Under the pieces are notes generated by a model. The model made no database searches. It was not told where the DNA came from and was given only the letters and a program-made list of their open reading frames with translations. A stretch of 32,000 bases of DNA, from assembly GCA_003345555.1 (NCBI GenBank), contig PRDJ01000039.1, positions 30,001 through 62,000 on the forward strand, in the 5' to 3' direction. Source of the DNA: Candidatus Thorarchaeota archaeon (GTDB taxonomy: Archaea > Asgardarchaeota > Thorarchaeia > Thorarchaeales > Thorarchaeaceae). Positions 20,346-29,767 of the stretch are shown piece after piece; the stretch's first letter is position 1; each line of letters begins with the position of its first letter. Both the position numbers and the translations under genes were made by a program.

Positions 20346-21749
20346 ATGCCTAAGAAGTTCGTGCCAAGAGGGATAATGCCAGCCCTCATAACGCCATTCG
20401 CGAAAGATGGCGAGATAATCGAACAGAGCTTTCGCGAGATTATCGATTACACAATTAGCAAAGGAGCCGCCGGAGTCGTACCCGCTGGCACAACGGGCGA
20501 GTTCGTTTACATGAATATGGACGAGCGCAAGAAGCTTCTGAGTCTGACAACGGAATGCGTGAATGGTCGCGTTCCGATTATTGCAGGCACAGGTCAGAGC
20601 AGCACTGAAGCAGCTACTGAGCTGACGAAGTACGCGGCAGATATTGGATGCGATGCAGCTTTGATCGTTTCTCCCTTCTATTTGAAACCGACTGACAAGG
20701 GCTACTACGAGCACTATGCCACTATCGCAAGAAAGAGTGACCTGCCTGTCATAATGTATAATATTCCTCAGATGGGCGGTATGGGTGTCCTCCCTGTTAG
20801 CGTTGTGGAAGACCTAGCCGAACTGGACAATATCGTAGGCATCAAGGACAGCAGTGGTAACATAACCTACATGCTGGAACTACTGCAGAAGCTAAAAGGC
20901 CGCATTTCTGTGATAAATGGCAATGACGAGATCTTCTTCTCTGCAGTGACTGCGGGTGTGAACGCCGCAATCATGGCCTCAGCGAACTTGATGCCTCATC
21001 TTTGGAATGATCTTTTGAAGAAAGTCCGCAAAGGTGACATTGATGGAGCCCTCAAGCTTCAGCTCTCGATGCAGACTCTGACTCGAATTGTGACAAGGTA
21101 TGGAGGTGCTCCGCCAGTCAGGGCAGCACTGAAGATGATGGGAATCGATTCGGGTAAAGCACGAATGCCACTTAACACAGGTGGGACGTTGACTCCCGAA
21201 CTTAAGGAGGAAATAAGAGTCGAGCTGGAGAAGCTAGGGCTGATTGGGGGTTCAAAGCATGTTGGTCCAGCGAAAGAAGTCGACATTAATGGTGTCCTAC
21301 TAGAGGCCGGATTGAGTGCCGAACAGCAACAAGCCCTCAAGGTCGGACGCGGATCGAGTCAAGCTTGTACCGCCAGCGTCGTTTGTGGATCCAAGACCGG
21401 TCCCCTGGGATCAGCGTTTGTCCGATTGCTGACGACTCCGCGAATTGGACGCGAGGCACTATCAGTGATTCTTGAACCGAACTTGGCTGTCAGACCTTCC
21501 AGCCTAATGTTGCCGGGCAGAAAGATCAGCTCAATGCGTCAGGCGTCAGTGTTCTACGGTCCAGTGCAGTCCGGCGCTGCTAGAGCTGTTGCAGGTCACC
21601 TAGCTGCTGGCAAGATATCTCCTGACGCGGTTCAAAACAATGTCATGGTGATGGTGATCGATGTGGACTTGGATACAGTCGACAGAAGAGCAGTCACTGC
21701 CGCTACGGAGGTAGCGGTTTCCGCGGCTCTCAGTCAGATTTGGAGGTGA
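20346..21749 (+). CDS. DapA/NAL-family class I aldolase (Schiff-base Lys intact) fused to a degenerate Fae domain (467 aa)
   Basis: GIMPALITPF, AGTTGEF, SPFY, MYNIP, VGIKDSSG (AAG 20844-20846); C-terminal EPNLAVRP and RQASVFYGPVQSGAARAV match Fae, but there is no His in the segment matching AHIDL. Confidence 0.9.
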   Translation: MPKKFVPRGIMPALITPFAKDGEIIEQSFREIIDYTISKGAAGVVPAGTTGEFVYMNMDERKKLLSLTTECVNGRVPIIAGTGQSSTEAATELTKYAADIGCDAALIVSPFYLKPTDKGYYEHYATIARKSDLPVIMYNIPQMGGMGVLPVSVVEDLAELDNIVGIKDSSGNITYMLELLQKLKGRISVINGNDEIFFSAVTAGVNAAIMASANLMPHLWNDLLKKVRKGDIDGALKLQLSMQTLTRIVTRYGGAPPVRAALKMMGIDSGKARMPLNTGGTLTPELKEEIRVELEKLGLIGGSKHVGPAKEVDINGVLLEAGLSAEQQQALKVGRGSSQACTASVVCGSKTGPLGSAFVRLLTTPRIGREALSVILEPNLAVRPSSLMLPGRKISSMRQASVFYGPVQSGAARAVAGHLAAGKISPDAVQNNVMVMVIDVDLDTVDRRAVTAATEVAVSAALSQIWR

Positions 21750-21755
21750 GGAAAA

Positions 21756-23234
21756 ACGCCTGAAGGATCTTGGCGATTCAAAGGTGTGTACGCCGGACTA
21801 GTCACACCGTTTGGTGAGAACGGCGTCAATGAGGCACAATACCGCAATCTGATTGAGCATGTTATCAAGGCAGGGGCAAACGGCATTGTTCCCTGCGCAT
21901 CACTCGGCGAATTCACAAGTATGTCATTTGAGGAGAAAGCTGAAGCTATTCGAGTCGCATGCGACGCTGCGAAGGGACGGGTGCCGGTGCTTGCGGGTGC
22001 ATGCGCGGCTTACACTGCCGACGTCGTCAAGCTGTATCTAAAGGCTGCCGAGTACGGAGCTTCGGGGGCGTTGGTAGTCTCTCCGTATTTCATGAAGCCT
22101 TCCACAAAGGAAATCTATGAACACTATGAGAAGGTTGCGAACTCAGCTGGTCTCCCAGTATTCCTGTATAATTGTCCACAGTTCACTGGCGTGAACCTCG
22201 ACTGGTGGCTGATCGAAGGTCTGCGCGAGATCAAGGGCATTATTGGGCTCAGCGATGCGAGCGGCAACTTGGTCAATGTCTCGCAGATACTCGCTCGTCG
22301 GCCAGAGGACTTTCAAGTTGTTGTTGGCCATGATGAAGTCGTTCTGCCGAGTATGGCAGCAGGCTGCGATGGAGCTATCCTAGCAACTGCAAATATCTTC
22401 CCCGACAGATATGTAAGAATGGCGATTGCTCTAAGTCAAGGCGATCTCAAAGAGGCTAGACTCATTCAGCGTAGCGTTCAGAGAACCGCGAGAATCGTTG
22501 TCAACAAGGGCGGTCCTCTCGCTGTCAAGGCGGCCCTGAATATGATGGGCATCCCCGTCGGTTCTGCTCGAATGCCTCTCCTACAGGGCGATGTTCTGGG
22601 CTATGATGACTTAGATGAACTCAGGACACAGCTGGAAGACCTCCAGCTGATGCCTAGAGGGTCAGTCACCTACAGGGCGCATGGTCGATCCGTTGTTACG
22701 GATGCATATCCGAAGGCTGTGGGAATGAGCAAGGACATCATCGATGACCTCACCCTCCTTCATGGAGAAGCTTTGTGTGGGGAGGGATTGGAAGTTGCTC
22801 ATGTCGATCTGGTTGTGGGACTCAAGGATGGGCCTATGCAGGCTGCCTTGACCAACGCAGGTATCAAGACCGATGGCTTCCATATGTCCAACATCATCAA
22901 GGACCTTCGACCTACGACCGTATTTGCGCCCACGGTGACAATCACCGACGAACATCACAGCAGGCTCGTGTTCGAGTTCGCTCAGAAGGCCGTTGCTGAC
23001 GCTGTGACAAGGACAATCACAGACCGGATGATTCCCGAGGAGCTTGTGCCAGACCTAGTGATTGCTGTGAAAGTGTTCGTCCATCCCAATGCCAACAACC
23101 CAAGACGGGTACACATGAACAATTTCCGAGCCACGAGGTTTGCGATAAGGCGAGCTCTGGAAGGTCGACAATCTGTAGAGGAGGTAGTTGCCCGAAAGGA
23201 CTCAGCTCGTCATCCATATGGCTACAATCCATGA
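21756..23234 (+). CDS. fae: DapA-like pseudo-aldolase (Schiff-base Lys to Ser) fused to an intact-looking Fae domain (492 aa from ACG 21756; 482 aa from GTG 21786)
   Basis: GVYAGLVTPF, ASLGEF, LYNCP, IIGLSDASG (AGC 22251-22253 at the Lys position); Fae signature GEALCGEGLEVAHVDL, AQKAVADAV, VFVHP, ATRFAIRRAL, C-terminal HPY. Confidence 0.9.
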   Translation, partial: TPEGSWRFKGVYAGLVTPFGENGVNEAQYRNLIEHVIKAGANGIVPCASLGEFTSMSFEEKAEAIRVACDAAKGRVPVLAGACAAYTADVVKLYLKAAEYGASGALVVSPYFMKPSTKEIYEHYEKVANSAGLPVFLYNCPQFTGVNLDWWLIEGLREIKGIIGLSDASGNLVNVSQILARRPEDFQVVVGHDEVVLPSMAAGCDGAILATANIFPDRYVRMAIALSQGDLKEARLIQRSVQRTARIVVNKGGPLAVKAALNMMGIPVGSARMPLLQGDVLGYDDLDELRTQLEDLQLMPRGSVTYRAHGRSVVTDAYPKAVGMSKDIIDDLTLLHGEALCGEGLEVAHVDLVVGLKDGPMQAALTNAGIKTDGFHMSNIIKDLRPTTVFAPTVTITDEHHSRLVFEFAQKAVADAVTRTITDRMIPEELVPDLVIAVKVFVHPNANNPRRVHMNNFRATRFAIRRALEGRQSVEEVVARKDSARHPYGYNP

Positions 23235-28765: not shown

Positions 28766-28890
28766 TGGTCATCACGCAAGCAAGCATAATGGCGGCACTT
28801 AAGCCTGAGTCACACTTTTTCAGCGAATCCGCAGTCGCCGCTGCCCGGGTTGACACAAATTGCCAACATTCACACAACAACGCATGAGCA

Positions 28891-28900
28891 TATTTAAAAG
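28891..28900 (+). promoter_or_regulatory. TATA box for rps25e
   Basis: TATTTAAAAG ~52 nt upstream of the inferred start at 28952. Confidence 0.55.
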
Positions 28901-28951
28901 CCAAACTCCAGATTCCCGCGAAGGAACCGTCCCAAATCAACTAGGAGAGTA

Positions 28952-29767
28952 ATTGCCATCAGCAAGAAGAAGTGGGGAAAGCCTGCCGCAAAGACCGAGC
29001 GATTGGTGCGAGAAGCAGTTCCCAAGCCAGAGACACTTCAGGAAGTGGATGACTACCTCAAGAAGGTCAGATCAACAACGGTTTTTGATGTGGCCAATCG
29101 GTTCAACATTCGTATGAGTGTTGCTCGGAGTATATTGGCGGAAAGAGAGGCAAACGGCAGTCTTGTTCCGTACGTGCGCGATGGCGGATTCGTAGCATAC
29201 TCAACTCCAGCTGAAATGGAGAAACGTCAGTCGGGTCGTGCCGTCCTTATCGCTGATGCACTCGAGGAGGTCGCATCATCTGTCACTCATGAGAGTCTTA
29301 TGACTGACCAGGTGGAAACAGCGTTGGCAGCAGCTGCCAGCATGGCAGTGGTGAAGCCGGGCAAGATTGCACGCCAGAGACGAGAGTTTGGCGAAAGAAA
29401 AGAGAAGACAAGGGATCGGAGACCCGAAGTCCTCGTGCAGCCTTTGGAAGGCGAAGGCGAGACTGGGCGAACGCTGGAACCAGAAAGGGGATTCACTCGG
29501 CCGGTTGCTCCGAAGGAGACTCCCCGGGAGGTAGCGCCGAAGACCGCTATCGTATCGCCAGAGGCCCCACAAGCGAGTTCCCGTTCGAAGAAGACTCCAT
29601 CCAAGCCCGAAAAGCCCGCCAGACCTGCGGCGAAGCCAAAAGAGAAAGCCGGGCCCAAGAAGAAGCCTGAGGCCGCAGCGAAGAAGCCTGCCAAGCCTGC
29701 GCAGAAGGCTCAAGTCAGGAAGAAACCATCTTCCGAAAAGCCGACCAAGACCGTCAAGAAGAAGTAG
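28952..29767 (+). CDS. rps25e: 30S ribosomal protein eS25 with a long Lys/Pro/Ala-rich C-terminal extension (271 aa from ATT 28952)
   Basis: KKKWGK N-terminal motif (28964-28981) in frame upstream of the first canonical start (TTG 29003); core TVFDVANRFNIRMSVARSILAE matches the eS25 wHTH; AGGAG RBS at 28943-28947. Confidence 0.85.
   Translation: MAISKKKWGKPAAKTERLVREAVPKPETLQEVDDYLKKVRSTTVFDVANRFNIRMSVARSILAEREANGSLVPYVRDGGFVAYSTPAEMEKRQSGRAVLIADALEEVASSVTHESLMTDQVETALAAAASMAVVKPGKIARQRREFGERKEKTRDRRPEVLVQPLEGEGETGRTLEPERGFTRPVAPKETPREVAPKTAIVSPEAPQASSRSKKTPSKPEKPARPAAKPKEKAGPKKKPEAAAKKPAKPAQKAQVRKKPSSEKPTKTVKKK

Follow-up and report, generated by a model that had tools for sequence, protein, structure and literature searches.

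The gene for ribosomal protein eS25 of an uncultured Asgard archaeon (Thorarchaeota) lies on contig C39 of genome G000, within the window analysed here, a stretch of 32,000 nucleotides corresponding to contig positions 30001-62000. All coordinates below are window positions, and the features described lie on the forward (+) strand unless noted otherwise. The eS25 frame is open from 28898, and its upstream in-frame stop codon is TAA at 28895-28897. The sequence then presents, in order, AGGAG (28943-28947), AGTA, ATT (28952-28954), GCC, ATC (28958-28960), AGC and AAG AAG AAG TGG (28964-28975), the last of which encodes the motif KKKW; the in-frame reading is AGG AGA GTA ATT GCC ATC AGC AAG AAG AAG TGG. 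If translation starts at the ATC, the coding sequence extends from 28958 to 29767 (269 codons plus the stop codon), an assignment that draws on a profile match, an alignment to solved protein chains and the pattern of coding variation.

The preliminary description of this DNA had named the gene eS25, and the identification is borne out by three kinds of evidence. The Pfam profile Ribosomal_S25 (PF03297) matches residues 22-101 of the open frame with 32.2 bits against a cut-off of 28.8; the match (28961-29200) begins at Ser 28961, the residue before KKKW. In a genome-wide profile search, this frame (at 35.2 bits) was the sole S25 match in G000. A phmmer search matched the solved eS25 chains 6rm3, 6zu5 and 9fhl, in an alignment that opens at KKKW, pairing query residue 3 with chain residue 24, and covers this basic N-terminal motif followed by the winged-helix domain. 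The close homologues of the frame in public databases are labelled Candidatus Thorarchaeota, and eS25 was found in all 23 high-quality genomes of the family, with one orthologue in G000. Judged by its sequence, the gene is intact. Downstream of the Pfam match the frame continues into a Lys/Pro/Ala-rich C-terminal extension (29201-29764) of about 190 residues, the final 100 or so forming a Lys/Pro/Ala-rich tail that is atypical for eS25. Such tails occur in all eS25 members of the family and vary in length, with open frames of 165-414 amino acids.

An archaeal promoter consisting of a BRE plus a TATA box (ATGAGCATATTTAAAAG, 28884-28900) is predicted from consensus and conservation 58 nt upstream of ATC 28958, and it is nearly identical in the family loci aligned. 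A second aligned motif (28913-28928) begins about 28 nt downstream of the first T in the TATA box; it reads TTCGCG-nn(n)-GAxCC in relatives and coincides with the predicted transcription start. Together, promoter and motif (28884-28928) are almost invariant across 16 genera. The transcription start is predicted near 28921, with a 5' UTR of about 37 nt; the conserved TATA box and this predicted start argue that the eS25 mRNA carries a leader of that length and is not leaderless. A regulatory RNA structure over the start was considered and rejected: RNAalifold found no conserved pairs over the leader and start in 21 sequences, and the window's own leader folds less than shuffled sequence (z = +1.34).

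The whole open frame from 28898 was read, and it contains no ATG, GTG or TTG upstream of TTG 29003, just as the preliminary description had claimed; all of its coordinates were confirmed. The absence alone is unremarkable, since the chance that 35 codons lack a canonical start is (61/64)^35, or about 0.19. What goes beyond chance is the conservation of the arrangement, not the missing canonical codons as such. Loci of eS25 from 66 genomes in the family, spanning 16 genera, and from a single outgroup were compared, and 52 loci from 11 genera likewise lack a canonical start at the aligned position, where they carry ATC or ATT. In these 52 loci, codon variation from Ser 28961 through codon 19 or beyond is almost confined to third bases, and Ser 28961 is conserved family-wide through AGY as well as TCN codons. 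This third-position variation shows that the region upstream of TTG 29003 is coding and that KKKW, already assigned to 28964-28975, is indeed translated. Read support at 28954 and an alignment of the 5' regions of relatives had been proposed as checks. Because 52 related loci share the missing canonical start, a sequencing error at 28954 is excluded. A pseudogene is ruled out along with it, as the arrangement recurs in 52 genomes with purifying selection downstream. On this comparative evidence, initiation of eS25 must use a near-cognate codon.

The geometry of the ribosome binding site bears on which near-cognate codon is used. The Shine-Dalgarno (SD) core (T)AGGAG at 28942-28947 is complementary to the 16S 3' end, ...CACCUCCU(A), with which it is predicted to form a duplex. 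The G000 assembly lacks its own 16S rRNA, and the anti-SD was taken from relatives, whose 16S tails all read GGATCACCTCCT if a 30-nt insertion of sporadic occurrence is disregarded. Fifty of the 52 near-cognate loci retain AGGAG, as do most canonical-start loci. It stands 10 nt before ATC 28958 (N10) and 4 nt before ATT 28952 (N4). Among 559 unambiguous ATG starts of G000, the spacing from GGAG to the start codon peaks at 8-12 nt, with counts of 19, 29 (N9), 22 (N10), 13 and 12, and a spacing of N4 is found once. Similarly, 13% of first canonical starts have an aligned SD of 5 nt or more at N8-11, versus 1.7%, the background level, at N3-5. The binding site thus lies at the organism's ordinary spacing from ATC 28958, at N10, and outside it from ATT 28952, at N4. 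The preliminary description had preferred ATT 28952, a choice not supported by the SD spacing used in G000. Of its two alternatives, ATC 28958 gained ground, being both at N10 and aligned with the proven ATG, GTG or TTG start of relatives, and GTA 28949 found no support.

The 16S insertion mentioned above deserves a separate description. In the 16S genes of L104 (genome G003, of the same genus), L095, L100, L102 and L111, 30 nt are inserted between GGATGGA and TCACCTCCT, immediately 5' of the anti-SD; the 16S genes L103, L105 and L116 served as comparison loci. The ends of the insertion can pair as a hairpin, and its sequence differs by genome with what appear, by eye, to be compensating changes. 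The insertion is sporadic within genera, one genome (G048) has both forms, and the element looks like a mini-intron. In genome G022 (L094), the preceding 16S hairpin loop is enlarged by an insertion of some 90 nt.

The comparison of relatives points to the same codon as the spacing does. Sixty-four family loci can be aligned here without an indel, and at the position matching 28958 they carry ATC (36), ATT (16) or ATG/GTG/TTG (12), and never ATA, GTH or CTN; the ordinary Ile positions 15 and 16 of eS25 use ATA freely and swap with Val. Two loci outside the 64 (L004 and L005) have an indel and read GTG followed by Ser, with an SD spacing of N9. Five of the 12 canonical loci have an in-frame stop one to six codons upstream. 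In L011, L015, L017, L019, L024 and L039, which have such a stop, the 28958-aligned codon is the first possible start, and all of these begin Met-Ser-(Lys/Arg)-Lys-Lys-Trp. L039 has a 1-nt deletion and a TAA immediately 5' of the TTG at the 28958 position, in a genus whose remaining 21 loci resemble the eS25 locus of the window. L019 reads ATA TAA TTG, with the stop between the two candidate positions. The stops in L039 and L019 argue that the two codons upstream of 28958 are dispensable. The triplet between the candidate starts (GCC, 28955-28957), which is TAA in both of these loci, varies at all three positions (entropy 1.02, 0.62 and 1.26). In genus g12 the 28952 position is TTT, CTC or TTG, and the 28958 position stays ATT. 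Orthologues have canonical codons at the 28958 position in 12 loci and ATG at the 28952 position in 3 loci, as would befit a near-cognate main start. On balance, translation probably begins at ATC 28958-28960, the likeliest initiation codon by its spacing from AGGAG and by the start-capable codons aligned with it, and the initiator tRNA would read this codon as Met.

The main competing proposal places the start at AUU 28952, which would yield Met-Ala-Ile-Ser-Lys-Lys-Lys-Trp and make the AUC two codons on an ordinary Ile codon. This is rather unlikely, although the conservation of the codon has to be taken seriously: across the 52 loci the aligned triplet is ATT in 42, ATC in 4 and ATG in 3, with AT invariant in 49 of 52 and ATA never found, and its first two bases are unchanged everywhere except in genus g12. 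ATG arose at this position twice independently, in g2 and g16, which fall in different clades of an eS25 tree whose deep branches are unresolved; such changes are expected of a start codon at 28952. In all three g12 loci the ATT at the 28958-aligned position is preceded, at a distance of one or two codons, by a canonical GTG or TTG, and the NCBI pipeline annotates the 28952-aligned ATT as the start in some relatives (P0019, MIISKKKW; L056, DNA ATT ATC ATC AGC). Nevertheless, among real starts in G000 a gap of 4 nt after AGGAG does not rise above background, g12 carries TTT or CTC at the 28952 position, and L019 and L039, in which a stop separates the two positions, start at the downstream codon, as do all canonical-start relatives. 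In addition, a start at AUU would leave Ile 28958 invariant and never replaced by Val or ATA, though this residue is absent from half the genera and the codon between the candidates, unlike the supposed Ile, varies freely. If AUU 28952 and AUC 28958 were both used, eS25 would have two N-terminal variants, and the two weak starts would together raise its output. In favour of this, each triplet is conserved as AT[T/C] and avoids ATA, a freely varying codon lies between them, and their spacing is free of indels in 51 of 52 loci. This combined use is considerably less probable still, as its first codon is disfavoured by the SD geometry and the pattern AGGAG-N4-ATY-NNN-ATY is not above chance elsewhere in G000 (12 matches, counted irrespective of gene-start context).

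Starts farther downstream or upstream fare much worse. The first canonical codons of the frame are TTG 29003 and GTG 29006 (29003-29008), and gene callers use the latter to produce the database protein P0002 (253 amino acids, MREAVPKPE...), which lacks KKKW and a precomputed Pfam domain. That eS25 truly starts at one of these codons, without KKKW, is very improbable: the 14 codons upstream show clear coding variation and hold the motif that aligns with the solved eS25 chains, the shortened model has lost its Pfam domain, and six relatives (L003, L007, L009, L012, L022, L023) have no canonical codon within 25 codons past KKKW. The coding variation upstream of TTG 29003 instead marks P0002 as a truncation. 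Hardly more credible is an upstream start joined to the frame, either through a leaderless mini-ORF with reinitiation or frameshifting or as an N-terminal extension. The idea draws on an ATG, GTG or TTG located exactly at the predicted transcription start in many relatives, on a 17-codon frame in g12 that runs from the transcription start to a TAG inside the SD, and on a TTG in L018 that is in frame with eS25. However, the NTG is not conserved, being AAG in G000 and its sister species and CCG, TTC or GAG elsewhere; frames and lengths differ among loci, some of the ORFs having only two codons; and in-frame stops immediately precede the SD in L012, L058, L072 and L073. The unconserved NTG and the differing frames and lengths led to the rejection of a conserved leaderless mini-ORF with reinitiation.

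With ATC 28958 as the probable start, the conservation of ATT 28952 calls for some other account. The triplet is part of a conserved spacer, AGTAATT (28948-28954), whose G-T and A-T, unlike the third bases, do not vary among the 52 ATC/ATT loci. Possibly the spacer forms the 3' half of an SD that is extended but imperfect, in which AGGAG, a bulged A, GU, a mismatched A and AUU face the 16S sequence GGAUCAC. RNAduplex predicts such extended pairing (AGGAG-A-GU-A-AUU), at a gain of only about 0.5-0.8 kcal/mol, and the spacer variants A>G and T>C improve the predicted pairing with 16S. As a suggestion only, an extended SD could reconcile the conservation of ATT 28952 with a start at ATC. Covariation between the third base of 28952-28954 and the facing 16S nucleotide was uninformative, as the 16S tails are uniform, and a genome-wide search for AGGAG(A/T)GTAAT returned the eS25 copy and two apparently random matches only. 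Compensation of a weak codon by a stronger SD is unsupported, since canonical loci do not have the weaker duplex: the mean predicted energy is -9.6 kcal/mol in canonical loci versus -8.6 kcal/mol in near-cognate loci.

Near-cognate starts also appear elsewhere in the genome. In-frame codons lying 5 or more codons ahead of the first canonical start were scanned in the long ORFs of G000, and those most often found behind a correctly spaced SD were ACG (4.5%), ATC (4.0%) and ATT (3.2%), versus 1.85% overall. For pooled near-cognates behind an SD at N8-11 the odds ratio was 1.96 (p = 3e-5), and the same ORF-context test found no enrichment at N3-5 or N14-17. A triplet profile behind every GGAGG, AGGAG or GGTGA had been set aside in favour of this test, being too noisy with most copies intragenic.

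The best match of the scan is ACG 21756, the apparent start of the second aldolase-Fae gene, where a perfect GGAGGTGA is followed by 6 nt and then ACG (21742-21758). In the sister species (G003) the corresponding codon behind this SD is ATG, and in other genera an ATG or GTG lies at most one or two codons away. The first canonical codon of this gene, GTG 21786, would remove a conserved RFKG. An ATT start with an SD at N9 is found at G000:C68:2113-2412 (minus strand; L118/L120), where ten relatives also have ATT, often just after a stop, and two genera have ATG; an ATC start with a well-spaced SD at G000:C26:6989-7288 (L119/L135) is ATG, GTG or TTG in relatives. The validated near-cognate cases sit at N9-N10. 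The suggestion in the preliminary description that near-cognate initiation extends through the lineage is supported by the enrichment of ACG, ATC and ATT behind the SD and by the ATG of the sister species at 21756, and these comparisons favour near-cognate starts as a lineage trait.

These results are consistent with the following model for eS25 expression. The gene would be transcribed from its own conserved TATA promoter into an mRNA with a leader of about 37 nt, on which (U)AGGAG (28942-28947) would anchor the 30S subunit and so bring AUC 28958, which follows at a distance of 10 nt, into the P site. There the initiator Met-tRNA would pair with the AUC through a third-position mismatch, giving the N-terminus Met-Ser-Lys-Lys-Lys-Trp, as in relatives with AUG, GUG or UUG at that position. 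The conserved AGUAAUU between SD and start would serve as an extension of the SD helix or as a context element. The weak codon would lower the output of eS25 or tie it to start-codon stringency, which is set in archaea by aIF1. In Sulfolobus solfataricus, aIF1 rejects AUU in 30S complexes in vitro (review PMC4705826), and AUY initiation should therefore be inefficient; the AUY start would make eS25 synthesis weak and sensitive to aIF1 stringency. The codon at 28958 was replaced by a canonical one within genera at least three times (L004/L005, L039, L019), and five whole genera are canonical, which argues that the weak start is maintained and not obligatory. Candidate readings of its purpose are a feedback device, a low stoichiometry of eS25 or tolerated drift.

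Near-cognate starts as such are already known. The start codons of genetic code table 11 include near-cognates. The bacterial infC gene, which encodes IF3, uses AUU for autocontrol, and near-cognates of AUG make up about 30% of the putative alternative initiation sites in ribosome profiling of Haloferax volcanii (PMC7261190). Like infC, eS25 is an essential translation gene with an AUH near-cognate behind a normal SD; in both, AUG in relatives or mutants marks the position as a start, and expression should depend on a proofreading factor (PMC4705826). The two differ in that eS25 belongs to another domain of life, the fidelity factor is aIF1 and not IF3, and eS25 is not itself the proofreader, so that feedback by eS25 would be an analogy only. 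In addition, the eS25 codon is AUG, GUG or UUG in 5 of the 16 genera and in single members of three more, and a near-cognate is thus not obligatory. The H. volcanii data show that near-cognate initiation events occur in archaea (PMC7261190), but the sites concerned were put aside as potential false positives, none being the main start of a conserved gene, whereas the conserved ribosomal protein gene eS25 has no start available other than its near-cognate, which is kept in 11 genera. A third parallel is eukaryotic non-AUG initiation at CUG, ACG or AUU, where the initiator tRNA also reads a near-cognate and a factor of the eIF1 family sets the efficiency; the Asgard lineage comprises the closest archaeal relatives of eukaryotes. 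Unlike the eukaryotic process, which scans and uses Kozak context, the archaeal one would depend on SD pairing at a fixed distance. No paper describing near-cognate starts in Asgard archaea turned up in a literature search. The GenBank Thorarchaeota S25 record P0019 ('40S ribosomal protein S25, partial') already assumes a non-canonical ATT start, but this is the pipeline's choice of the longest homology-supported frame and not evidence, and the codon chosen is the one disfavoured by SD geometry.

There are practical consequences for annotation. Public models of the gene disagree (P0002, P0008, P0010, P0013-P0016, P0019-P0022) and err in three ways: they are cut after KKKW, extended from an upstream GTG through the SD (MPRRVITIS...) or started on ATT read as Met. 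The truncated models carry no precomputed Pfam domain, and surveys of Asgard ribosomes may in consequence score eS25 as missing or incomplete. A testable rule for re-annotation is to look for a near-cognate codon 8-11 nt after GGAG.

More generally, eS25 provides a well-replicated case (52 genomes, 11 genera) for AUU, AUC, ACG and CUG starts at normal SD spacing, and bears on the evolution of start-codon stringency between archaea and eukaryotes. A bolder possibility, which at present seems improbable, is that Thorarchaeota have a relaxed, eukaryote-like regime in which AUU, AUC, ACG and CUG are regular starts behind an SD, and that the eS25 mRNA, whose invariant initiation region persists across 11 genera, acts as a sensor within it. 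In eukaryotic ribosomes the N-terminal extension of eS25 reaches toward the P site (PMC9932298). If the sensor idea were true, the synthesis of a protein whose tail points to the P site would be coupled to start-codon stringency (aIF1 activity), and the organism would have ribosomes of variable eS25 content.
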